In this document: positions 7,248 to 38,317 of the stretch, one piece after another
How the letters are laid out: each line of letters opens with the position of its first letter
Position numbering within the stretch: position 1 is the first letter of the stretch
From: Lachnospiraceae bacterium
GTDB taxonomy: Bacteria; Bacillota_I; Bacilli_A; Erysipelotrichales; Erysipelotrichaceae
DNA: 50,073 bases
NCBI GenBank assembly: GCA_963659075.1
Contig: CAVKTV010000002.1
Span: 1-50,073, forward strand
Reading direction: 5' to 3'
Made by a program: the position numbers and the translations under genes
The notes under the pieces: model-generated
Database searches by the model: none
What the model saw: the letters and a program-made list of their open reading frames with translations, nothing else
Told to the model about the DNA's origin: nothing

Positions 7248-10086
7248 TAAATTAATTATTCGTGGTGCACGTGAAAACAATTTAAAAAATATTTCCTTGG
7301 AAATACCAAAGAATTCTTTAGTTGTTATGACAGGTTTATCTGGTAGCGGAAAAACTTCTCTTGCGTTTGATACGATCTATGCGGAAGGTCAAAGAAGATA
7401 TGTGGAATCTTTATCTGCTTATGCTAGACAGTTTTTAGGTGGCGTAGAAAAACCTGATGTGGAATCTATTGAAGGACTTTCTCCCGCAATCTCCATTGAT
7501 CAAAAAACGACTTCTAATAATCCACGTTCAACTGTTGGTACTGTTACAGAAATCTATGATTATTTGAGATTGTTGTACGCAAGATGTGGAACACCATATT
7601 GTCCAAATCACAATATTCCTATTACTGGTCAAACGATTACAGAAATGGTTGATACAGTTATGTCTTTTGAAGATCGTTCTCGTTTAACGATATTAGCTCC
7701 TATTGCACGAAATAAAAAAGGAACATTTAAAGATTCTTTTACGAAGTTATTAAAAGAAGGTTATATTCGTGTTCGTGTAGATGGTGAAATTAAATTATTA
7801 GAAGATGACATTGAACTAGAAAAGAATCAAAGACATGATTTAGATGTAGTTATTGATAGAATTATTAAAAATGAAGATTCTAGAAGTAGAATCCATGATT
7901 CTATTGAAACAGCTTTGAAGCTAGGTGAAGGAAAAGCTTTGGTTTTGAATGGGGAAGAAGAGAAACTATTCTCAGAAAACTATAGTTGTCCTATTTGTGG
8001 ATTCTCTGTAGGAAATCTAGAACCAAGACTATTTTCATTCAATGCACCATTAGGAGCGTGTGATGTATGTCATGGATTAGGAATCACAGAAGAAGTTGAT
8101 ATATCAAATTTGATACCAGATGATTCATTATCTATTCGACAAGGTGGTATTCGTTATTATAAGAATATTGTGGATACAGACAATATTGAGTGGCAAACAT
8201 TTACGGTTTTATGTAGAGCTTATAAAATTGATTTAGATAAACCTATTTCAACATTCACGAAAAAACAATTAGAAATCATATTACATGGATCTGATAAACC
8301 TATTAAATATACAATTATTTCATCTGGTGGTAATCGCTATGATAAGAATGATTATATTGAAGGTGTAAAAGATATGATTGAAAGAAGATATGTGGAAACA
8401 ACATCTTCTTGGCATAAAGAATGGTATCACTCTTATATGATTGAAAGTCCTTGTCCTAAGTGCTCTGGTAAAAGATTAAATGAACAAGCTTTATCTGTAA
8501 GAGTTGGTGATAAAAATATTGCGCAATTTACAGAAATGTCTGTTTTAGAAGCAAATGAATGGATGACAAACTTAAAACTAGACACTGAAAAAACAAAGAT
8601 TGCGGAAATGGTGTTAAAAGAAATTGGTTCTAGATTAAAGTTTTTAAGTGATGTCGGATTGAATTATCTAACATTAGATCGTTTAGCTGGAACGTTATCT
8701 GGCGGAGAGTCGCAACGTATTCGTTTGGCAACACAGATAGGTTCTCAATTATCAGGAGTCTTATATGTTATGGATGAACCAAGTATTGGGTTACATCAAA
8801 GAGATAATTCAAAACTTATTCAAACAATGAAAAAGATGAGAGATCTAGGCAACTCACTCATTGTTGTAGAACATGACGAAGAAACAATGACAGAAGCAGA
8901 CTGGATCGTTGATATTGGACCTGGTGCAGGGGTACATGGTGGAGAAGTTATGGCATCTGGTACACCGCAACAAGTAATGCAGGTAGAACAATCGATTACC
9001 GGTCAATATTTATCAGGCAAGAAATTAATTCCTGTTCCAGAAAAAAGAAGAAAAGGAAATGGATGTTCCATTGAATTAAAAGGTGTTGAAGAACATAATC
9101 TTAAGAAAATCAATGTAAAGATTCCATTGGGTAAATTTGTTGTTGTGACAGGTGTCAGTGGTTCTGGTAAATCTACATTGGTAAATGATGTATTTATGAA
9201 AGCTGTTCTTTTAAATCTTGGAAGACAAAAAATAAAACCAGGTAAATATAAAACAATCAAAGGATTAGAGAATATTGATAAATTAGTTCAAATCGATCAA
9301 CAACCAATTGGTAGAACACCAAGAAGTAATCCAGCTACATATACAGGTGTATTTGATGATATTCGTGATGTATTCGCTAAGACACCAGAAGCTAGAATGA
9401 GAGGCTATGATAAAGGTAGGTTCTCATTCAATACAAAAGGTGGTAGATGTGAAGCTTGCCAAGGTGATGGCGTAAAAGTGATTCGTATGAATTTCTTGCC
9501 TGATGTGTATGTGCCTTGTGAAGTGTGTCATGGACAAAGATATAATGAAGAAACATTACAGTGTACATACAAAGGAAAGAATATCTTTGATGTATTAGAA
9601 ATGTCTGTGGAAGAAGCTTTGTTATTCTTTGCCAATCACCCAAAGATCAAAAAGAAACTTCAAACATTATATGATGTAGGATTAGGCTACATGAAATTAG
9701 GTCAATCTTCTACAACACTATCGGGTGGTGAGGCACAACGTGTCAAGCTCGCCAGTGAACTACAAAAACCCGCAACAGGTAAAACAGTCTATATTTTAGA
9801 TGAACCAACAACAGGATTGCATACAGATGATGTAAAACGATTGATTTCAGTCTTACAAAGAATCGTAGATAATGGAGATTCTGTTGTGGTAATTGAACAT
9901 AATCTAGATGTTATTAAATGTGCAGATTGGATCATTGATCTAGGACCGGAAGGTGGAGATGGTGGAGGAAGCGTTGTCGCAACAGGTACACCAGAACAAG
10001 TCTCTAAAGTTGAAGGATCTTGGACAGGCCAATATCTGAAAAAAGCGCTCGAATGGACGAAAGAACATCAAGTAGGGAAAGTATGA
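7237..10086 (+). CDS. uvrA: Excinuclease ABC subunit A
   Basis: GARENNLKN, two Walker A motifs (GLSGSGKT, GVSGSGKS), Zn fingers, LSGGE. ATG at 7237 overlapping the mutS end is more likely than 7210. Confidence 0.98.
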   Translation: MENNKLIIRGARENNLKNISLEIPKNSLVVMTGLSGSGKTSLAFDTIYAEGQRRYVESLSAYARQFLGGVEKPDVESIEGLSPAISIDQKTTSNNPRSTVGTVTEIYDYLRLLYARCGTPYCPNHNIPITGQTITEMVDTVMSFEDRSRLTILAPIARNKKGTFKDSFTKLLKEGYIRVRVDGEIKLLEDDIELEKNQRHDLDVVIDRIIKNEDSRSRIHDSIETALKLGEGKALVLNGEEEKLFSENYSCPICGFSVGNLEPRLFSFNAPLGACDVCHGLGITEEVDISNLIPDDSLSIRQGGIRYYKNIVDTDNIEWQTFTVLCRAYKIDLDKPISTFTKKQLEIILHGSDKPIKYTIISSGGNRYDKNDYIEGVKDMIERRYVETTSSWHKEWYHSYMIESPCPKCSGKRLNEQALSVRVGDKNIAQFTEMSVLEANEWMTNLKLDTEKTKIAEMVLKEIGSRLKFLSDVGLNYLTLDRLAGTLSGGESQRIRLATQIGSQLSGVLYVMDEPSIGLHQRDNSKLIQTMKKMRDLGNSLIVVEHDEETMTEADWIVDIGPGAGVHGGEVMASGTPQQVMQVEQSITGQYLSGKKLIPVPEKRRKGNGCSIELKGVEEHNLKKINVKIPLGKFVVVTGVSGSGKSTLVNDVFMKAVLLNLGRQKIKPGKYKTIKGLENIDKLVQIDQQPIGRTPRSNPATYTGVFDDIRDVFAKTPEARMRGYDKGRFSFNTKGGRCEACQGDGVKVIRMNFLPDVYVPCEVCHGQRYNEETLQCTYKGKNIFDVLEMSVEEALLFFANHPKIKKKLQTLYDVGLGYMKLGQSSTTLSGGEAQRVKLASELQKPATGKTVYILDEPTTGLHTDDVKRLISVLQRIVDNGDSVVVIEHNLDVIKCADWIIDLGPEGGDGGGSVVATGTPEQVSKVEGSWTGQYLKKALEWTKEHQVGKV

Positions 10087-27717: not shown

Positions 27718-27750
27718 AAAAAAACGTTACATGAAATGTGTAACGTTTTT
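27718..27750. terminator. Bidirectional terminator between convergent units
   Basis: A-run, AAAACGTTACAT-GAAAT-GTGTAACGTTTT, T-run. Confidence 0.8.
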
Positions 27751-28540
27751 AAAACTTTGAAAGACCATTCTTTCGTGCCATACGAATCATATGATCATAA
27801 ACTTTTGATCCAAATAATGCATACAGAATATTAACGATGATAAATACGATCCACTCTGCATTCATTGATAACAACATAGAACTACCAAATAAAACATTTC
27901 TGACTAAGTCTAATCCCCAAGTGAATGGGAATACTATTGCGATACTTCTAAATACGATAGGAAGTTGAATGACTGGGAAATATAAACCAGCTAAGAATGG
28001 CGCAATATTTGCGACCAAAGATACGATTTGATTTGCTTCTCTAAAGTAAATCGCAAGTCCCATCAACATTTCCGCAAATCCATATGTTCCAAATGCCATA
28101 ATTACAACAATCAATAAAATATTCAACAAAGAATATAATGACATTGTATTAAATGAAAAGATAATAAATAGAACAATCAAAGGTATCATTTCTAATACTA
28201 CAGATATAATTCCACTAACAGCCCAACCAAATATATAATGGATCCCTTTTAATGGCATACTCATCATATATTCAAAATTACCTTCTCTTAATTTTCTTCT
28301 GATTTCAAATACCGCAGACCACATATTCTCAATGAATTGCCAAAGTATCAAAGAAAATAACATGTATTGTATATATTCTGTTTTACTAGTAATACCTGAA
28401 ACTTGAAAATCACCAAATAACAATATCGCAATCGCTGGGAATACTAATAATACTGCATCCGTACTGGCAGAAAATAATTCAATCTTATAACGGAATTTCT
28501 CTTTCAATTCCATTGTTAATAACGTAATCGCTTTTACCAT
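27749..28540 (-). CDS. ABC-2 type exporter permease 2 (RiPP cluster)
   Basis: Six TM segments; EG.FEY....P, AGLYFP...LP and P.T...D..R ABC-2 motifs. Confidence 0.88.
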   Translation of the reverse strand: MVKAITLLTMELKEKFRYKIELFSASTDAVLLVFPAIAILLFGDFQVSGITSKTEYIQYMLFSLILWQFIENMWSAVFEIRRKLREGNFEYMMSMPLKGIHYIFGWAVSGIISVVLEMIPLIVLFIIFSFNTMSLYSLLNILLIVVIMAFGTYGFAEMLMGLAIYFREANQIVSLVANIAPFLAGLYFPVIQLPIVFRSIAIVFPFTWGLDLVRNVLFGSSMLLSMNAEWIVFIIVNILYALFGSKVYDHMIRMARKNGLSKF

Positions 28541-29262
28541 TGGTCTGTATCTCCATTCTTTCTAAGAATCTGAATATCATGATTCACTCTAGAATAACCA
28601 ATCAACGCAAATAGGAATGAAATACCTAAAGGTAATAATAACCAACATAGATTCATTGAGAAGATATCACTTCTCGTAAAAGCAATCGTATACGTCAAAG
28701 GAATCACATAGGATACAAATTGGATGATTCTTGGATATTTCTTAATGTCATAAGAATATCCAGAAAAGAAACCAATGACTTGTTGAACCAATGAATTAAT
28801 GGATCCTAATTTCTTCATATGCATAGATAAACAAAGAAACAAGATTCCCATATTCGCTACAACGACTTCATTCACAAATAAAATAAATAAGAATCTCATT
28901 AAATCAGGAATATGAATTCCTACTAATGAAAAAAAGAATATCTGTAATAAAGATATGATATATGTTTCAATAATCATCTGTAATGCTTTCGCAAGAAAGT
29001 ATTGTTGAAACTGTATTGGATATAAGAATAGATTTGTGAAAGTTCCATCTAATCTTTCTTCTGTGACAAACGCACCAATTGAAAAGAATGATTGATTCAA
29101 TCCATACCAACACAACATACCCTTTAAAGTAAGCACTTGTTGTTCTGCACTAACCATATAAATATATGGAGCTATCATAAAGAAAGTTCCAAATACCATA
29201 TTGATCAATAACCATTTATATCTAGAATCAGTCTTCAATAATCTCATCAAATGATTCCACAT
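28534..29262 (-). CDS. ABC-2 type exporter permease 1 (RiPP cluster)
   Basis: EER.DGT......P, FSG..Y....P and IPLTY motifs; AAGGAGG before ATG 29262. Confidence 0.88.
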   Translation of the reverse strand: MWNHLMRLLKTDSRYKWLLINMVFGTFFMIAPYIYMVSAEQQVLTLKGMLCWYGLNQSFFSIGAFVTEERLDGTFTNLFLYPIQFQQYFLAKALQMIIETYIISLLQIFFFSLVGIHIPDLMRFLFILFVNEVVVANMGILFLCLSMHMKKLGSINSLVQQVIGFFSGYSYDIKKYPRIIQFVSYVIPLTYTIAFTRSDIFSMNLCWLLLPLGISFLFALIGYSRVNHDIQILRKNGDTDQW

Positions 29263-29902
29263 ATTGAATATGACCTCCTTCAACCAAATAGTTTCGAACA
29301 TGATCTTTATTTGTAATGCCAGTATGAGAAACTAAGAAGATTGTTTTTCCTTGTTTCACATACTCTTGGAACATCTGTTCCACAATCAAACAAGTTTCTT
29401 TATCCAAACCATTCATGATTTCATCCGCATAAATAATTTCAGGATCATTCAAGAAAGCACGAGCAACCATGACTTTCTTTTTCATACCTGTAGAAAAATC
29501 TTCTACAAGTGTTTTATCATTTTTAATTTCTAATTGATTTAATAATGTATTAATTCTTTTATCTAATTCATTTTTTGAGATATGAAAGATTCTACCAATA
29601 TAATAAAGATTCTCATAAGCAGTTAACTTATGATATAAAGAACGATCATCTGCAGTAACGATACCAATATGATTGAGGTATTCATTTCTACACTTTTCAA
29701 TATCTTTACCTTTATATAAAACAGTACCAGAATCAGGAAGCATCAAACCATATAACATCTTTAAATATGTACTTTTCCCACAACCATTCTTACCATTCAA
29801 CAAATGAATATATCCATCATCAAATGACATTGTGATATGATCTGATACAACTTTATCTCCAAAAGATTTAGTAATATTATCTGTTTGTATTATCGCTGTC
29901 AT
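29228..29902 (-). CDS. ABC exporter ATP-binding subunit (RiPP cluster)
   Basis: Walker A GKNGCGKST, signature FSTGMKKK, Walker B IIYADE and H-loop VSH. Confidence 0.93.
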   Translation of the reverse strand: MTAIIQTDNITKSFGDKVVSDHITMSFDDGYIHLLNGKNGCGKSTYLKMLYGLMLPDSGTVLYKGKDIEKCRNEYLNHIGIVTADDRSLYHKLTAYENLYYIGRIFHISKNELDKRINTLLNQLEIKNDKTLVEDFSTGMKKKVMVARAFLNDPEIIYADEIMNGLDKETCLIVEQMFQEYVKQGKTIFLVSHTGITNKDHVRNYLVEGGHIQYVESFDEIIED

Positions 29903-31178
29903 GAACTCTAAATACCCCACTTTCTATTTCTTCAGTAATATAACGCAGACGAATTAAATATGGCATCTGTACTTCCATGATTTCTTTACGACAAGATTGA
30001 GGAATATTCTCTACACTAGCATCGTAAAAACAACCACCATTACATAATGCTAAATATTTGCAATTGACACAAGATTCAAATGTTTTGTTTGAAAAAGAAA
30101 CAAGTTTTTCAATATATAGCATTCTATTGTGTTGAATATCATTATAATCACAAATCTTAAATTCAGATACACCTAAAGCTGAAATGCATTTATAAATATC
30201 ACCATTAGGTGCGATTAATATGTCATTAGGTTCCTTCGCAATGCAAATTGGTGAAGGTATGATTTCAGTGGTGGAAATACCTTTTCTGATTTCCTTTTCA
30301 AGCAATTCTAAATAATTGCGATAGTATTGTTTTAGCTCGGGAATATGTTCTTTTGTATAGGAGGATTTTCCAAAAGGATGACACTCCATGCCATAGTTAA
30401 AAATAATACGAGGCTTCTCACAAAGAATATAATCTTTAAATTCGTTAATTAATAAATCAGTACTTTCATCAATATTGTCATAATTAGCTGTATCAATAAC
30501 AGAATTAATGATAATAGTAGCTTGTGTTTGTTCTAAAATTTTATGAATGTTAGAAATGCTTGCTTGGAAAGAATTGATGTTATTAGAAATACGTCTAGAA
30601 TTGTGAGTTGCTTCAGGACCGTCAATTGTAATTTGGATATGATTGATATTGTAACTGTTAATGAGATTTAAAACTCGTTGATCAATTAATGTTCCATTTG
30701 TTACAACACTATATGCAACATCTCCTATTTCTTCTTTGGCTATTTTTAATATTTGTTCGATATAAGGGATATTAAAAAATGGTTCACCACCAAATAAACA
30801 TACATTCAATTTATCAACATTGTGAAGTTCCATAAGATGCTTCCATTCAGTAACTCTTTCATGAGGATCCATTCTTTTATCTATTTCATGAATATTCTGT
30901 TGCATACAATAGACACACTTTAAATTGCATTTATATGAGAAAGCATCGGTTACCTGTAGAACAGATTTGTTTGCTTGTTTGATTGAATTGATAATATAGC
31001 GAGCAATGGAAGGACCATTAACATCCTCTGGAAGTAAGACACCTTCTGTAATAAGCTCTTTTTTAACTTCATCATCTATATCAATAGTTTCTAGATATTT
31101 AATGGCATCCGTATAAGGGTTGTACAATAAATAGCCTTTTTCATGTGGAATTATAAAAACATTATCTTTAAATTGCAT
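29877..31178 (-). CDS. Radical SAM/SPASM peptide maturase with an N-terminal RRE-like domain
   Basis: CNLKCVYC, FGGEP, TNGTL and ITIDG...H...R motifs; SPASM C..(NGDIYK)C..CVNCKYLALCNGGC..C; short N-terminal 'YLLYNPYT..ELITEGVL' domain; AGGAG before ATG 31178. Confidence 0.93.
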   Translation of the reverse strand: MQFKDNVFIIPHEKGYLLYNPYTDAIKYLETIDIDDEVKKELITEGVLLPEDVNGPSIARYIINSIKQANKSVLQVTDAFSYKCNLKCVYCMQQNIHEIDKRMDPHERVTEWKHLMELHNVDKLNVCLFGGEPFFNIPYIEQILKIAKEEIGDVAYSVVTNGTLIDQRVLNLINSYNINHIQITIDGPEATHNSRRISNNINSFQASISNIHKILEQTQATIIINSVIDTANYDNIDESTDLLINEFKDYILCEKPRIIFNYGMECHPFGKSSYTKEHIPELKQYYRNYLELLEKEIRKGISTTEIIPSPICIAKEPNDILIAPNGDIYKCISALGVSEFKICDYNDIQHNRMLYIEKLVSFSNKTFESCVNCKYLALCNGGCFYDASVENIPQSCRKEIMEVQMPYLIRLRYITEEIESGVFRVHDSDNTNR

Positions 31179-31198
31179 TTTGGTTCTCCTAATATTAA

Positions 31199-31227
31199 AA
31201 AGAAAAGGTGACATTACAAGTCACCCT
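31199..31227 (-). terminator. Attenuator/terminator hairpin between precursor and maturase
   Basis: Minus strand AGGGTGAC-TTGTAAT-GTCACCTT followed by TTCTTTT. Confidence 0.75.
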
Positions 31228-31231
31228 AAAA

Positions 31232-31309
31232 TTAATTGCGTTGTGATTTAATAGAGCATCCTTGAGCACAAACACGTACATCTTTAATTGCTTTTTCGAA
31301 TCTGCACAT
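31232..31309 (-). CDS. Putative RiPP precursor peptide MCRFEKAIKDVRVCAQGCSIKSQRN (25 aa)
   Basis: Perfect RBS AAGGAGGT 7 nt before ATG; first ORF of the rSAM operon; three Cys including CxxxC; followed by a stem-loop; absent from the ORF track. Confidence 0.85.
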   Translation of the reverse strand: MCRFEKAIKDVRVCAQGCSIKSQRN

Positions 31310-31366
31310 TTTAGAAACCTCCTTATTTTATTGAAGTATATACTTATCTTTCCTTAAGGTAATTCA

Positions 31367-31432
31367 ATTATAGGCGGCGAATAGTTGACTTTGAACTATC
31401 AGTTTGTTAGTCTTGCGATAACTAAAAGTTAT
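31367..31432 (-). promoter_or_regulatory. RiPP operon promoter with candidate LysR binding sites
   Basis: Minus strand TTCAAA(31395-31390)-N17-TATAAT(31372-31367); palindrome ATAACTAAAAGTTAT (T-N11-A) at 31418-31432, centred near -65; second inverted repeat ATAGTT-N7-AACTAT at 31381-31399 over the -35. Confidence 0.65.
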
Positions 31433-31449
31433 TACGAAGGTAGAAGCAT

Positions 31450-32280
31450 ATGTACAACAAATATTTAAAAACTTTTATTGAAGTAGCTGAGTATGGAAGT
31501 TTCACAAAAGCTGCAGAGCATTTATATATTTCTTCTGTGGGAGTGCAGAAACAGATTTCGAGCTTAGAAAAAGAATTAGATTTGAAATTGTTTGAAAGAA
31601 CAAAACAAGGGGTTGAATTGACTTACGCTGGTCAAAGAGTTTATAAGGATTCAAAGAAGTTAATCGAATTTTGTGATAATGAAATGGAAGCTATCAAGGA
31701 AAAAGAAAATAATTGTTTGAAAGTAGCGAATTTCATCATCAAAAATACAGACACAATAAATGAAAATATGTTAAAAAAATACAAAAAGAAGTTTATTATT
31801 CTTCCGTTTGTTTCTAAAGAGAAAAATGGTTTTGATGATATGGAAGAAGATGTGAAACAAGGTTTTGATGCTTTTATTTTCACTAAATTTGTTGATTCTT
31901 CAATGAAAGACTGGAATTATAAATATTTGTTTGATTCACCGCTTAAATTAATTGTTCCAAAAGGAAATGATTTATTTATGAAAAGAAAAATCAGTTACTC
32001 TGATTTAGAAAATACAAAAATATGTTTTTTTGCGAGAGGTTTATTGGAGGATTACGATAAGATTAGAGAAAAAATCAATCAAACTGTACCTAGTTTGAAG
32101 GCTATTGATTTTGAACCTGGAAAAATAACACTAAATGAAACTTTGAATATAATGGGGAATTATCCATTTGTAACAATTGATGGAATTGATTTTGTAGTAT
32201 CTAATAGTAAATCTATTCCTTTTTCATTTAATACAGATATTTCAATTGGACTTTATACAAAAACAAATTTCTTTGACTAA
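31450..32280 (+). CDS. LysR-family transcriptional regulator, divergent from the RiPP operon
   Basis: LKTF..VAEYGSFTKAAEHLYIS...V.KQISSLEKEL...LFERT..GV.LT.AG HTH; divergent substrate-binding domain. Confidence 0.93.
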   Translation: MYNKYLKTFIEVAEYGSFTKAAEHLYISSVGVQKQISSLEKELDLKLFERTKQGVELTYAGQRVYKDSKKLIEFCDNEMEAIKEKENNCLKVANFIIKNTDTINENMLKKYKKKFIILPFVSKEKNGFDDMEEDVKQGFDAFIFTKFVDSSMKDWNYKYLFDSPLKLIVPKGNDLFMKRKISYSDLENTKICFFARGLLEDYDKIREKINQTVPSLKAIDFEPGKITLNETLNIMGNYPFVTIDGIDFVVSNSKSIPFSFNTDISIGLYTKTNFFD

Positions 32281-33193: not shown

Positions 33194-33763
33194 TTATGAG
33201 TTTTTTAATACTGCTGGGATAGAATGTGTAAATATCATTGAAATATAATCTACAAGTTGTTCTGTTGATCTTTGATTTGGTTCAGAGAATATAGATACAA
33301 GTGTAGAAGCTAATGCTTCTGTATAGAATTCAATTAAGAAGTTAATGAAATCTGTTGAAAGTGTTGGATTTAATTCGTCTTTTAAACCATTGATGATTTT
33401 AGATACAACATCCATAAAGTCTTTTTTAAAGAATCGTTTCATTTCTTCTCTACCAATACTAGAATATGCACAATTTAAAATGTGTGCATTTTTTTGTACA
33501 TAAGAAATGGTGAAGGAAACAGCTTCTTCATAATCTAATAGAAAGTCATAACTTTTTACGATTTCAATTGCTTCTTTATCGAGTATCCATTTCAATAGAT
33601 CATAGATATCTTGAAAGTGATAATAGAAGGTCTTTCGATTTACATTACATTCTTTGATTAATTCAGTCACTGTAATTTTATTCAGTGGCTTTTTCTGCAT
33701 GAGCTGTTTTAAAGTTTCTGCGAGTAAGTTTTTTGTCTGCAACGATGCTTCTTCATGTGTCAT
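33194..33763 (-). CDS. TetR-family regulator
   Basis: KPLNKITVTELI.EC.VNRKTFYYHFQDIYDLL HTH; divergent from the MMPL operon. Confidence 0.93.
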   Translation of the reverse strand: MTHEEASLQTKNLLAETLKQLMQKKPLNKITVTELIKECNVNRKTFYYHFQDIYDLLKWILDKEAIEIVKSYDFLLDYEEAVSFTISYVQKNAHILNCAYSSIGREEMKRFFKKDFMDVVSKIINGLKDELNPTLSTDFINFLIEFYTEALASTLVSIFSEPNQRSTEQLVDYISMIFTHSIPAVLKNS

Positions 33764-33943
33764 AAAATCACCTCGGTTTTATTATACATGTGTGTAGTAA
33801 ATCTTAAACCAACAATACAAAGCATATGAGTAATAATTTGGTCCACAAATGATATGTGTTTGTCCGTATTTACACATCTGTACCATATTTGTCCGTTTTT
33901 TTACCTTGAAATAAAAACTATATTTTTGTGCGAAGGAGGAAGT

Positions 33944-34252
33944 ATGTGGGAAAAGAAATATTGTATAGAGATGCAAGCACCATTGGGTATTCGAATGGGC
34001 ACACTTCTATTAAGAAATGAAAATGGATGCTTGGAAGGAACACTATATTTTTTAGACAAAGAAGAAAAGATGGTTGGCGTTCTTCGAGATGATGGTGTGA
34101 TTAAATTAAAAGGAATGATGACAACTGCAGTACGTTCTTTTCCAGTTTATCTTGAAGGAAATATAGTAAATGATGAATTGAATTTAATTGTGAAAAATCA
34201 TAAAAGAGAAATACATATAAAAGGAAAAGAAGTACATGAAGAAATTTTATGA
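33944..34252 (+). CDS. Small hypothetical beta-rich protein, first gene of the MMPL operon
   Basis: AAGGAGG before ATG 33944; M.APLG...G.L pattern; overlaps the next gene. Confidence 0.7.
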   Translation: MWEKKYCIEMQAPLGIRMGTLLLRNENGCLEGTLYFLDKEEKMVGVLRDDGVIKLKGMMTTAVRSFPVYLEGNIVNDELNLIVKNHKREIHIKGKEVHEEIL

Positions 34253-36299
34253 AAAGATAACAAATCATCAAAGATTGATCGTAGTGTTGTTTCTTGTGCT
34301 AACTGTAATATGCACGTTTGCGAAATCTTTGATATCTGTCAATTATGATATGACAGATTATTTACCAGAAGATAGTGCATCAACAGTTGCGCTAGATTCG
34401 ATGAGTGAAGAATTTGATCAAGGTATTCCAAATGCGAGAGTTATGTTGAAAGATGTAAGTGTCGCAGAAGCATTGGAATATAAATCGAAGATTGAAAATA
34501 TAGATGGTGTTACAGCAGTGACTTGGTTAGATGATACATGTGATATCAACGAACCGCTTGAAGTTATGGATCAAGATACTGTTGATTCATATTATAAGGA
34601 TGGAAATGCGTTATTCACTGTCACAATTGATGAAGATAAAAGAATTGATGCGTGTGATGAAATTAGAACAGTTATTGGCAACGATAACGCGATGACTGGT
34701 AGCGCTGTTTCTACTGCTACTGCGACAACTTCAACCGTAACAGAAATTCCAAGAGCAGCAGTCTTTGCGGTTCTATTTACATTATTAGTGTTGTTTATGA
34801 CAACAACATCTTATGTAGAGCCACTTGTAGTTATGATTGGACTTGGCGTCGCTGTCATGATCAATGCGGGAACGAATCTTATTTTTGGCGAAATATCATT
34901 CGTTACAAATGCGGCAGGTAATATTTTACAGTTGGCAGTTTCGTTGGATTATTCTGTATTCTTATTACATCGTTTTGAAGAATACAAAGATGATTATGAT
35001 GATCCTAGAGACGCAATGGTATATGCATTAACAAGTTCACAATCTTCTATTTTATCGAGCGGATTAACAACAGTTATTGGTTTTATTGCCTTGTGTTTAA
35101 TGCAATTTAGAATTGGACCAGATTTAGGACTTGCCTTAGCGAAAGGTATCGCAATTAGTTTGATTACAGTGTTTGTATTTATGCCTGCATTTATATTAAA
35201 AACATATAAATGGATCGATAAAACAAAACATAAAAGTTTTTTACCAACATTTGAAGGCTTTTCTAGATTTGTTACAAAGATGATGATTCCTTTCGCAATT
35301 ATATTTGCGGTTTTGATTGTTCCATCTTATTTGGCATCTAATAAGAATGATTTCTATTATGGATCATCCCATATATTTAATGAAACAACACAATATGGAA
35401 AAGATACACAAGCAATTGAAGATGTATTCGGAAAGAGTGATAACTATGTGTTGATGATTCCAAAAACATCTACCGCAATAGAGAAAGAATTATCAGATGA
35501 ATTACATGATATGAAACAAGTAACAAGTATCATATCTTATGTTGATACAGTAGGTGAAACAATACCTGAAACATATTTGGATACAGATACGTTATCTAAA
35601 TTGAATTCAGAGAATTACACAAGAATGGTTTTAAATGTAAGTGTAGATTATGAAGGCGATGAGACGTATTCATTGATTGAAGATATTCGTGATACGGCAG
35701 AAAAATATTATCCAGGAGAATGGTTATTGGCAGGTGAAGGTGTATCTACATTAGATTTAAAAGATACTGTTACTGCAGATATGGTGAAAGTAAATCTTCT
35801 GGCAATTGGTGCAGTCGTTATTGTACTTTTATTGACAATGAAATCTATTTCTCTACCTATATTATTAGTAGCTTCTATTGAAACAGCGATATGGATTGGA
35901 TTGTCTATTCCTTATTTTACTTCTTCTAACTTATTCTATATAGCGTACTTGATTATTAGTTCAATTCAACTTGGCGCAACAGTCGATTACGCAATCTTGT
36001 TAACTGAACGTTATTTAGAATATCGACAAGAATACACGAAAAAAGTAGCAATCCAAAAAACAGTACAAGCAGTTACTGCTTCTATATTAACTTCATCGAT
36101 TGTATTAACAGTCGTTGGATTCTTACTTGGATTCTTATCATCCCATGGACTATTGGCACAACTTGGTATGTTATTAGCGAGAGGAACAATTTGTTCATTT
36201 TTGATCGTATTGTTTGCATTGCCAGGATTGTTATATATATTTGATAAATTAATTCAAAAGACATCTTTAAATATGAAATTGAAAGAGGAAAAAGAATGA
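34236..36299 (+). CDS. MMPL/RND-family membrane transporter
   Basis: Two repeats of 1 TM + loop + 5 TM; YLP.D, LQLAVSLDYSVFLL.RF and QLGATVDYAILL..RY motifs. Confidence 0.9.
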   Translation: MKKFYEKITNHQRLIVVLFLVLTVICTFAKSLISVNYDMTDYLPEDSASTVALDSMSEEFDQGIPNARVMLKDVSVAEALEYKSKIENIDGVTAVTWLDDTCDINEPLEVMDQDTVDSYYKDGNALFTVTIDEDKRIDACDEIRTVIGNDNAMTGSAVSTATATTSTVTEIPRAAVFAVLFTLLVLFMTTTSYVEPLVVMIGLGVAVMINAGTNLIFGEISFVTNAAGNILQLAVSLDYSVFLLHRFEEYKDDYDDPRDAMVYALTSSQSSILSSGLTTVIGFIALCLMQFRIGPDLGLALAKGIAISLITVFVFMPAFILKTYKWIDKTKHKSFLPTFEGFSRFVTKMMIPFAIIFAVLIVPSYLASNKNDFYYGSSHIFNETTQYGKDTQAIEDVFGKSDNYVLMIPKTSTAIEKELSDELHDMKQVTSIISYVDTVGETIPETYLDTDTLSKLNSENYTRMVLNVSVDYEGDETYSLIEDIRDTAEKYYPGEWLLAGEGVSTLDLKDTVTADMVKVNLLAIGAVVIVLLLTMKSISLPILLVASIETAIWIGLSIPYFTSSNLFYIAYLIISSIQLGATVDYAILLTERYLEYRQEYTKKVAIQKTVQAVTASILTSSIVLTVVGFLLGFLSSHGLLAQLGMLLARGTICSFLIVLFALPGLLYIFDKLIQKTSLNMKLKEEKE

Positions 36300-38128
36300 A
36301 AACAATTAAGAGAATTGGGTTATGTAGTTTAAGTGCTTTATTGTTGATGCCTTGCGTTACAGTAAAAGCAGAAGAAACAAATGAAAAAGAAGAAGTTATA
36401 TATGTTATGATGGATTCTAATGGAAATCAGAAAAGCACAAATGTTGTAAATATATTTGATGGTGGAGATATCGTAGACTATGGAAATTATAGTTCTGTTA
36501 AGATGCTTACAACAAATGATGTAATATCACAAAATGGAGATGAAATCACATTTCATTCAGATGCGGATAGAGTTTATTATCAGGGAACAATGGATAATCC
36601 AGAAATTCCTTGGAATATTGAAATCAAGTATTATATGAATGATGTAGAATATACACCATCTGAAATTGCTGGAAAAAGTGGCGATTTGAAAATTAAGTTC
36701 GTTGTAACGAAAAATGAGAATTGTGATAAAGACTTTTATGACAATTATGCATTACAAGCCTCCTTTACTTTAGATACAGATCAATGTAGTGATATTGATG
36801 CGGAAGGTGCAACAATCGCTAATGTAGGTAACGATAAACAATTAACATATACGATTCTTCCTGGAAAAAGAATTGATACAGAAATCACAGCGACTGTGAA
36901 AGATTTTGAAATGGATGCGGTAAGTATCAATGGTGTGAAACTAAATCTAAATGTTGATATTGATACTTCAGAATTAACAGATAAAGTATCTGAGTTGATT
37001 GACGCAACAAATGAATTGAATGATGGGGCTTCTACTCTAGCAGATGGAACGTCTTCTGTATCTGATGGAACAGGAAGCGTAAAAGATGGTGTAGGTTCCG
37101 TGTATTCTGGAGTGGAATCTTTAGATGAAGGTATTGCGTCTTTGCGATATGGTGTAGGAGCAATGCAGAATGCGTTGAGTACTTTAAGTAGTAATTCTAC
37201 AACCTTAACAAGTGGCTCAACAGAAATGAAGAATGCATTGGATGAATTGAATACAAAATTAAGTGCACTTTCTTTAGATACACAACAATTACAACAATTA
37301 GTTGATGCGAATGGTAAGATTGCGGGAGGAATCGCAGAATTGTATAAACAGTCAACCCAACTAAGTGAAAATGCAACCACTTTAAGCACACAAAATACAA
37401 ATACAGCTAACGCATTGAAAGCATATGCGGAAAAATTAGATCAAGAAAATCAAAAAGAACTAGTTACTCAACTTAATAACACAGCTACTTTATTAGAAAC
37501 TAATAAGCAAGTACTTGGAGGTGTACAACAATTATCAGAAGGATTGAAATCTTTGAATGAACAATATGGACAATTTACTAGTGGAATGAATTCATTAGTT
37601 GATTCATTGAATGTCATCGTAGGAAATATGAATCAATTAAAAGAAGCAGTATCTACGATATCTGAAAAATATCAATCATTAGATTCTGGTGTTCAAACAT
37701 ATACAGACGCTGTTAACTCTTTGAATGAAGGGTTTGGAAATATCACAAGTGGTGTGAGCCAATTGGCGAGTGGAAGTAAGAACTTATTGGATGGCACAGG
37801 AACATTGAATTCTGGTGTATCTGAATTATATGATGCAACACAACAACTATGTGATGGAGCTACTACTTTAGCGAATGGTACAAATACAATGAATGAAGAA
37901 GTATCAGGAATGGATACAGAAATTGATGATAAGATTGATGAAGTTTTAGATTCTTTACAAGGTACTGGTGAAGTTGTTTCTTTTACATCTGATAAGAATA
38001 CGAATGTAAAGAGTGTTCAGTTTGTACTAAAAACAGATGAAATTAAGAAAGCAGAAACAGAGGAAGTAGAAGATACTACAGAAAAAGAAGAAAGCTTTAT
38101 TGATAAACTAAAAGCATTATTTGAGTGA
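36296..38128 (+). CDS. Secreted coiled-coil protein with xxxLxxG heptad repeats (YhgE/Pip-like), MMPL partner
   Basis: Signal peptide ending VKA-E; KEEVIYV N-terminal motif; LNDGASTLADG-type heptads on both sides of a long helical hairpin; SVQFVLKT C-terminal motif. Confidence 0.75.
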   Translation: MKTIKRIGLCSLSALLLMPCVTVKAEETNEKEEVIYVMMDSNGNQKSTNVVNIFDGGDIVDYGNYSSVKMLTTNDVISQNGDEITFHSDADRVYYQGTMDNPEIPWNIEIKYYMNDVEYTPSEIAGKSGDLKIKFVVTKNENCDKDFYDNYALQASFTLDTDQCSDIDAEGATIANVGNDKQLTYTILPGKRIDTEITATVKDFEMDAVSINGVKLNLNVDIDTSELTDKVSELIDATNELNDGASTLADGTSSVSDGTGSVKDGVGSVYSGVESLDEGIASLRYGVGAMQNALSTLSSNSTTLTSGSTEMKNALDELNTKLSALSLDTQQLQQLVDANGKIAGGIAELYKQSTQLSENATTLSTQNTNTANALKAYAEKLDQENQKELVTQLNNTATLLETNKQVLGGVQQLSEGLKSLNEQYGQFTSGMNSLVDSLNVIVGNMNQLKEAVSTISEKYQSLDSGVQTYTDAVNSLNEGFGNITSGVSQLASGSKNLLDGTGTLNSGVSELYDATQQLCDGATTLANGTNTMNEEVSGMDTEIDDKIDEVLDSLQGTGEVVSFTSDKNTNVKSVQFVLKTDEIKKAETEEVEDTTEKEESFIDKLKALFE

Positions 38129-38135
38129 TTTGTTA

Positions 38136-38283
38136 TTGACAGATTGAAAAAATATGATAATATATGTCAGCGTTATCAAATACCATAGACAGTAACGGCG
38201 GAAGCTTAATTATGTTACCGAGGTGAATGAAAGCTAACTATTAGACTTTAATGCCCTCGTGAATTCCGCGAGGGCTTATTTAT
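38136..38283 (+). promoter_or_regulatory. rplJ promoter and L10 leader (L10-L12 autoregulatory RNA)
   Basis: TTGACA 38136 with TGnTAATAT; AGACAGTAAC..TTAA..GTTACCGAGG motif; terminator GCCCTCGTG..CGCGAGGGC with T-rich tail. Confidence 0.8.
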
Positions 38284-38317
38284 GTGTATGCGATAACTAG
38301 AAAAGAAAGGTGATTGA

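Follow-up and report, generated by a model that had tools for sequence, protein, structure and literature searches.

The stretch of DNA analysed here, called the window throughout, comprises 50,073 nucleotides (nt) from a Lachnospiraceae bacterium (GenBank assembly GCA_963659075.1, contig CAVKTV010000002.1; Erysipelotrichaceae in GTDB) and contains a six-gene unit encoding a LysR-type regulator, a short precursor peptide, a radical S-adenosylmethionine (SAM) maturase, and the ATPase and two permeases of an ATP-binding cassette (ABC) transporter, every part lying where it had been predicted (Table 1). Taken as a whole, the locus is likely to be a gene cluster of an unnamed family of ribosomally made peptides that carry post-translational modifications (RiPPs), whose product would carry a single thioether and be exported. 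The extent given in the original prediction, which was made from the DNA letters alone, was borne out by three congeneric genomes (G015, G410 and G341), in which the prolidase and proline iminopeptidase genes that flank the unit are adjacent and both the cassette and LysR are missing from the gap; because of this empty site, the inserted unit is taken to run from LysR through the second permease (27749-32280). The two peptidases were considered as leader peptidases of the cluster and rejected, as both are adjacent at the empty site too. The GC content is 29% in the cassette versus 33% in the genome.

Pfam matches agree with the predicted overlapping ABC ATPase gene, two ABC-2 permease genes and divergent LysR gene, the LysR-type protein matching with its helix-turn-helix (HTH) only and giving no LysR_substrate match in the scan. 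The ribosome-binding site (RBS), stem-loop and bidirectional terminator that had been described are also present: the hairpin between the precursor and maturase genes has a z score of -3.57 (1 of 200 shuffles is equally stable), the terminator one of -3.50 (0 of 200), and the hairpin probably sets a surplus of precursor mRNA. The proposed promoter fared less evenly, since its TATAAT is invariant in four of four aligned loci, but promoter-type matches number 40 in the window against 39.2 expected, so that a match by itself is no better than chance.

Table 1. Features of the inserted unit and its boundaries (positions in the window)
Feature	Coordinates	Strand	Evidence
LysR-type regulator, 276 amino acids (aa), divergent	31450..32280	+	PF00126 match; missing, like the cassette, where three relatives have the empty site
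T-N11-A inverted repeat ATAAC-N5-GTTAT, candidate LysR operator	31418..31432		sole match within the window
Sigma-70-like promoter TTCAAA-17-TATAAT	31367..31395	-	TATAAT invariant in aligned loci
Precursor RBS AAGGAGGT	31317..31324	-	sequence; 7 nt 5' of ATG
Precursor peptide, 25 aa	31232..31309	-	conserved small open reading frame across family loci
Terminator-like hairpin with U tract, precursor/maturase gap	31205..31227	-	z score (see text)
RRE-radical SAM-SPASM maturase, 433 aa from ATG with RBS	29877..31178	-	PF04055; marks D78, N261-x-G263-x-x-C266-x-P268
ABC transporter ATPase, overlaps end of maturase gene	29228..29902	-	PF00005
ABC-2 permease 1, 242 aa from ATG with RBS (longest open reading frame from 29301)	28534..29262	-	PF01061
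ABC-2 permease 2, 263 aa	27749..28540	-	PF01061
Bidirectional terminator, common to operon and convergent prolidase gene	27720..27750		z score (see text)

The unannotated open reading frame (ORF) of 25 residues proved to be a conserved precursor. Besides the window, 28 family loci were collected, of which 26 could be assessed, as L010 and L013 start within the maturase gene. An intact precursor (25-44 residues, with C-x4-[QP]-R) was found in 23 of them (L002-L009, L011, L012 in part, L030, L179-L188, L243 and L244), an in-frame TGA interrupts it in two (L190 and L286), and only L168, in which the maturase gene is broken, has none. Extraction of the short ORFs next to homologous maturases, a check proposed with the original prediction, thus gave a conserved peptide at 25 of the 26 loci. 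The ORF lies directly upstream of the maturase gene in all but L007, where two copies (7398-7478 and 7778-7858), one with Pro for Gln, stand between maturase and transporter; in the same locus, an S41 peptidase gene is located some 1 kb upstream of the maturase. Of 14 loci added after the motif had been settled on the first locus set, 12 had it intact, against a background of 17 in 146 non-family radical SAM loci having a same-strand small ORF with the loose C-x4-[QP]-R within 1.5 kb.

Across 19 distinct peptides (two of them from the protein database), one Cys is invariant and always at residue 17-19, and the Arg at +6 from it is equally invariant. Position +5 is Gln in 18 and Pro in one, and position +4 is Ser in 16, Gly in two and Thr in one; Gly precedes the Cys (-1) in 16, and further Cys residues occur at +7 (15 of 19), +2 (eight) and -4 (three), each peptide having two or three Cys in total. 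The window precursor consists of a basic leader of about 16 residues and the core C18-S-I-K-S-Q23-R24-N, in which, going by the alignment, the conserved unit is C18-x-x-x-S22-Q23-R24. The pattern expected earlier, FEK..K.V.VC..GC, is not the one conserved across homologues; C-x4-Q-R is. The absence of aromatic residues from the core was noted correctly. Nine precursor pairs differ by 55 synonymous and 58 non-synonymous codons (single pairs lie between 3:0 or 10:2 at one end and 1:3 or 4:12 at the other; window versus L004, three synonymous and no non-synonymous changes), and Ser and Arg are retained via different codon families; this pattern, together with the codon-family switches, argues for selection at the peptide level. 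NCBIfam precursor models gave no meaningful match to any of 15 precursors. By eye, the N-terminal extensions of the database proteins P0004 and P0005 resemble the precursor region in another frame, which would account for the peptide being overlooked by gene callers.

By its sequence, the maturase is a member of a separate clade of radical SAM/SPASM enzymes. Among 5.8 billion proteins searched, 27 matched above 200 bits, with the next at 108, and a profile search of 1.84 billion representatives, in which the profile's own members score high by construction, gave 21 above 320 bits and then none beyond 256. In a quick tree, with support from the Shimodaira-Hasegawa-like approximate likelihood ratio test (SH-aLRT) only and the row SCIFFmat_L247 disregarded, the window protein and 12 other full-length maturases, which are all the included ones with an intact or TGA-at-Cys precursor, fall in one 28-row clade (SH-aLRT 97), and a seven-row sister group joins it to make 35 rows (SH-aLRT 91). 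Two loci, L014 and L021, were rejected as members, with 30-31% identity and no motif precursor, L014 also lying outside the clade. Upstream of the L021 maturase, Cys-rich ORFs of 75 and 93 residues (L021:5377-5913) have a Cys at about every fifth residue. At two Thermotogota loci, a second, unrelated radical SAM/SPASM gene adjoins the family cluster (L011:588-1871 and L192:1418-2692), and in L192 two near-identical ORFs of 474-476 aa without Pfam match flank the cluster.

The enzyme matches PF04055 (E 8e-18), and its CxxxCxxC (C84/C88/C91) is present in 35 of 35 family proteins, as are seven Cys with SPASM spacing (C312, C331, C370, C373, C379, C383 and C396). The Pfam scan matched neither a SPASM nor a RiPP recognition element (RRE) model. 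In an AlphaFold model with a predicted local distance difference test score of 90, residues 1-69 form three strands followed by helices, and the best match in the PDB, by sequence as well as by Foldseek (E 3e-16), is the thioether synthase CteB, with which VIA-align superposes residues 4 to 416, including the N-terminal RRE (Z 26.0, root-mean-square deviation 3.8, 375 aligned). The invariant motif and SPASM cysteines, the RRE fold and the conserved precursor thus agree with the predicted radical SAM/SPASM RiPP cluster, down to the short RRE-like N-terminus that had been proposed. Two more marks set the family apart: position 78 is Asp or Glu in 35 of 35 members versus mostly Ile, Leu or Val in 119 outgroup proteins, and an eighth Cys, C266, which follows the last barrel strand, occurs in 33 of 35 and is Ser in two.

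Upstream of the operon, the inverted repeat of Table 1 (0.24 matches expected in the window; 21 of 100 shuffles contain one) has its centre some 65 nt upstream of where operon transcription is inferred to start. LysR operators typically have a T-N11-A repeat near -65 that overlaps the region of the regulator's own promoter, and the position of this candidate box fits the layout of a LysR divergent operon. It is kept in L002 and L250, and in L003 both arms are altered to ACAAC-N5-GTTGT, a change that goes with a change in the LysR HTH; the window LysR is 64% identical to the copy of L002 and 34-36% to that of L003. LysR control, as originally proposed, has support from sequence at this site, but it does not extend to the family. 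A LysR gene adjoins the cluster in four genomes at one insertion site (the window, L002, L003 and L250), homologues of its C-terminal domain above 50% were found in just two of these four among 116 genomes of the genus, and none is next to the inspected loci L005-L009, L011, L030 and L190-L193; L190 has a divergent HTH_3 regulator in its place, with an insertion sequence just past it. Judged by gene neighbourhoods, LysR is local to one insertion site and not a family trait. At the DNA level, identity to L003 is 51-69% from LysR to maturase residue 410, then 83-94% over the maturase tail and transporter and 78-85% over the flanking peptidases, with a sharp junction near 29950, and identity to L002 is 71-87% over the LysR-to-maturase block and 87-90% over the transporter. 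Given this pattern, regulator, operator, peptide and enzyme moved jointly at least once.

The family has two transporter types, an ATPase with two permeases or two fused ABC genes (L008, L009, L030 and L190). Among the 116 genomes of the genus, the second permease was found in 11, and in four of these the intact trio occurs without a working maturase: L264, L265 and L284 (G341, G410 and G327) have no maturase nearby, and L168 (G173) has a broken one and no precursor. In G341 and G410, the trio follows an asnA-like gene. Transporter-only genomes fit self-protection and hence an antimicrobial product, a fit rather than a proof, and we give an even chance to a narrow antimicrobial with self-protection. 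A product that is mainly a kin-specific signal, read by LysR and existing as interchangeable alleles (pherotypes), is doubtful by comparison, and other roles are less probable still. The signal would suit the divergence from L003 of the LysR-operator-precursor-maturase block (maturase residues 1-410), the joint change of both operator arms with the LysR HTH and the divergent HTH_3 regulator flanking L190; also, peptides of the SCIFF type, discussed below, are listed as quorum-sensing peptides (PMC8326336). However, the block is explicable by a single allele replacement from a distant donor, without ligand co-evolution, one strongly divergent allele is all that was seen, most family loci have no regulator nearby, and the transporter-only genomes suit immunity better. 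LysR proteins usually bind small metabolites, which counts against the signal as well.

For the chemistry, the combination of one invariant Cys, a seven-Cys SPASM domain and CteB as the nearest structure makes a single thioether the best reading. The seven-Cys SPASM spacing has been described as leaving an open iron on auxiliary cluster I (PMC13692751). Since the L005 precursor has no other core Cys, the conserved bond cannot be Cys-to-Cys. In the sequence of events we propose, LysR would bind the box at about -65 and turn the operon on, the 25-residue precursor would be produced in surplus, and its basic leader would dock on the maturase RRE, by analogy with CteB. A SAM-derived radical would then abstract a hydrogen from the residue four to six places past Cys18, and Cys18, bound to the open iron of auxiliary cluster I, would close one thioether ring, with the family-specific acidic residue D78 probably gripping Arg24. 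Finally, the leader would be cut off by a host protease, and the ABC trio would export the small ring and shield the producer. As acceptor, Gln23, next to its amide, comes first, if short of an even chance, because known side-chain acceptors adjoin an amide, hydroxyl or acid, as stated for the acceptor carbons of ranthionines (PMC8326336), and because there is an i+5 precedent. Arg24, a candidate because it alone is invariant among the acceptors, and Ser22, which could serve only via its alpha carbon because Gly occurs at +4 (in two relatives), are each unlikely, and any other residue is quite improbable. Literature searches did not find a linkage from Cys to a Gln or Arg side chain.

Several points weigh against this reading. 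The maturase and CteB share just 15-19% identity, and anSME equals CteB by VIA-align Z score, CteB being the only one among these to cover the N-terminal RRE. Of six catalytic-site residues, at positions taken from PMC10288494, four differ between this enzyme (M-F-T-T-I-S) and three SCIFF maturases (F-F-T-S-H-Q), and the same article warns that full-length likeness mispredicts chemistry. C266 could fill the open iron, donate a hydrogen or alter the chemistry. The Arg is invariant where the Gln is not, one precursor having Pro at that position, and the loci are not independent, as peptides are identical within L179-L181 and within L185-L188 (Thermotogota). The cluster had also been called complete, which holds for its parts, but the cassette encodes no leader peptidase.

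Among the known systems, the SCIFF/thermocellin group (CteA/CteB, Tte1186; TIGR03974) is similar in its fused RRE-radical SAM-SPASM enzyme with seven SPASM Cys and in its short basic leader ending near GGC, and it is the group for which the Cys-to-i+5 spacing was first reported, a reassignment being reported as well (PMC8326336). One rival reading makes the precursor a cut-down SCIFF, keeping leader and last ring with the Cys-rich middle deleted. The SCIFF tail C-T-V-G-N-Q-x-C stands in the same register as C-x-x-x-S-Q-R-C, and three SCIFF precursors beat at least 99.6% of 500 shuffles on the core profile and 88-97% on the leader, in a test chosen post hoc. We consider this origin unlikely, since the maturase scores 65 bits with the TIGR03974 model, whose cut-off is 425, shares 23-27% identity with three SCIFF maturases, two of which are distant from it in the tree, and falls off the SCIFF clade; the whole-precursor profile gives no SCIFF match, and two genomes hold both systems separately. 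Unlike SCIFF, with six Cys in about 45 aa, the precursors here have 25-44 aa with one invariant Cys, and the operon has a dedicated ABC transporter, besides the catalytic-site differences given above.

Less probable again is a product without thioether, in which the enzyme would make a Ser/Thr-to-Gln ether, as TqqB does, or epimerise a residue with Cys266 as hydrogen donor, the invariant Cys binding a cluster or forming a disulfide. The position of C266 resembles that of the donor Cys in the epimerase EpeE, which would likewise follow the last barrel strand. However, C266 is Ser in two of 35 proteins, one of which (P0067) appears to share its contig with an intact, typical precursor, and the EpeE fold match is far below that of CteB (Z 16 versus 26). 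For the ether, 17 of 19 precursors have Ser or Thr at +4, followed by Gln in all of these but one S-P, and TqqB links adjacent Thr and Gln (PMC9389541); against it, the Gly at +4 in two of 19 is incapable of an ether, and Ser reacted only marginally with TqqB (PMC9389541). The crosslink originally proposed, within C14-A-Q-G-C18 and with Cys14 as donor, is very improbable, for although the window, L002, L003 and L004 retain Cys14 and are all without the +7 Cys, so that a second, lineage-specific ring or disulfide from it is conceivable, its position is Cys in only three of 19 precursors (Cys18 19, Gln23 18, Arg24 19), and the residues up to Cys18 are unconstrained (A-Q-G, S-K-S, A-D-R) while C-x4-Q-R is fixed.

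Enzyme and precursor were also compared with other named families. None of 25 NCBIfam models listed reached its own cut-off. The maturases of CefB (NF038107, 138 of 600 bits), Clo7bot (TIGR04334, 113 of 600), TIGR04463 (111 of 525) and the geopeptides (TIGR04280, 110 of 400) gave the top scores, over most of the length, yet all were below 30% of the cut-off, and unlike the CefB group with a Cys at every fifth residue, there is no Cys-repeat precursor here. Freyrasin (PapB) and the NxxC peptides (NxxcB) share the proposed Cys-to-side-chain thioether beside an acid or amide, but the candidate acceptor here is a Gln or Arg after the Cys; C-x3-D is missing (+4 is Ser, Gly or Thr), the PapB model NF047865 gives 100 of 340 bits, and there is no N-x-x-C motif, Asn occurring at -3 in one of 19. 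The T-Q-Q of the TQQ rotapeptides is likewise lacking, +4 to +6 being [SGT]-[QP]-R. The streptococcal RaS-RiPPs (streptosactin, TQQ, RRR, QMP) have a similar minimal cassette of regulator, short precursor, hairpin, radical SAM enzyme and transporter, but the window site has LysR instead of SHP/Rgg and none of their motifs occurs; also, this family spans Bacillota and Thermotogota loci, with one member named from Thermococcus. As the original prediction had it, no described family was recognised, and the enzyme, which fails membership of SCIFF, CefB, Clo7bot, TIGR04463, geopeptide, PapB, NxxC and TQQ, probably works like a ranthipeptide system all the same.

Literature searches gave no paper describing the family, which could still figure in subscription papers, supplements or the ABC-filtered 'RiPP-RaS' atlas. 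The table of PMC10288494 has one motif-ending peptide, entered for BAL80230.1, as 'Other Uncharacterized, Singleton'; this accession, whose enzyme may belong to the family, is absent from those listed for 20 clusters. Three family accessions are absent from the spreadsheet of the same article, and the supplements of PMC9062424 gave no match to family terms.

At one locus, the donor itself may differ. In L190 (6878-6979, genome G738), the precursor has TGA as codon 19, where the invariant Cys belongs, with a typical remaining core, and the maturase and both transporter genes are intact. On the precursor hidden Markov model, the peptide scores above 13,734 decoy ORFs (E 0.037), and selA, selB and selD of the host are all over cut-off. 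Starting 22 nt after the TGA is a stem of five Watson-Crick pairs, closed by a loop that opens with G; the same stem-loop criterion holds for four of five selenocysteine (Sec) sites of the host, for 71 of 1742 random TGA sites and for one of 15 Cys-type precursors. Compared with the Sec insertion sequence model of PMC13188914 (a loop of 3-9 nt opening with G, at a distance of 16-37 nt from the UGA, and an energy of <= -7.5 kcal/mol), loop and spacing fit, but the energy of -6.0 (z 0.5-0.8) is weak and short of the limit, which four of five host Sec sites likewise miss in the same 45-nt span. Also against Sec, the ORF has 17 other single-base routes to a stop, which makes a nonsense change easy, and of three selA-bearing hosts only this one has TGA at the invariant Cys, the other two using Cys. 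We put the case for Sec, rather than a nonsense change, slightly under an even chance. By contrast, the TGA at +4 that cuts the C-x4-Q-R core of L286 (1375-1467; L287:5866-5958), in a peptide upstream of a sister-clade maturase, is plain nonsense in a decayed locus, as the host has no selA and the transporter gene is split; this peptide extends the motif to the sister clade. A Sec-bearing RiPP precursor is on record in the selenobacteriocins (TIGR04081; PMC13188914), which have an SGUG motif and, by a title cited there, thio(seleno)oxazole products, whereas the candidate Sec here stands in for the donor Cys in a core of thioether type.

The distribution is patchy, with profile matches to the maturase in 6 of 401 genomes from the bacterial family and 7 of 401 from the order (own genome counted); a first search among relatives found the maturase in none of 60 other genomes. 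In the phylum of L011 (Thermotogae), it matched 11 of 151 genomes, and sources of family proteins include Sedimentibacter, Roseburia, Marinitoga, Thermococcus, Peptoniphilus and Caldanaerobacter subterraneus MB4 (AAM24389.1). The plasmid collection had no maturase match at E 1e-40, the ESM Atlas gave generic radical SAM clusters only, and among the matches listed from the metagenome search there were only distant radical SAM genes (80 loci, used as background). The ribosomal proteins of L002, L003 and L010 are 95-99% identical to those of the window, and the labels of L002, L003, L006 and L010, which give unrelated taxa (Eubacterium, Duodenibacillus, Oscillospiraceae and Bifidobacteriaceae), look unreliable. 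Elsewhere in the window, a further insertion (33194-38300; with genes for a TetR regulator and a 687-aa membrane protein, a small ORF and other content) occupies the iminopeptidase-rplJ interval and is missing from L002, L003 and L224-L226. The same genome has two further radical SAM/SPASM-like genes under the SCIFF cut-off (G000:C66:4060-5088 and G000:C67:566-1552).

Overall, this is a new family in a class already known, probably with a new linkage and possibly with a natural selenium form. A fuller picture, of a widespread family with a minimal ring from a single Cys to a Gln or Arg side chain, at least one lineage with a Sec donor and hence a natural selenoether ring, and regulator, operator, peptide and enzyme swapped as one specificity block at the window site, is improbable in its entirety. 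New subfamilies of radical SAM RiPPs have, with few exceptions, yielded a new crosslink, and the prediction here is a clean one, with one invariant Cys, a seven-residue core and a synthesisable 25-residue substrate. Natural variants take the place of mutants (position +4 as Gly, Ser or Thr; position +5 as Pro; a second Cys before, after or absent), and the enzymes should be workable, since cultured thermophiles are among the named sources of members. The thioether maturases PapB and Tte1186 tolerate Sec in synthetic peptides (PMC10177961), and if the TGA of L190 encodes Sec, nature would offer an example of what was shown there with synthetic peptides only. The window site, in turn, allows a test of whether a LysR protein reads a modified peptide.

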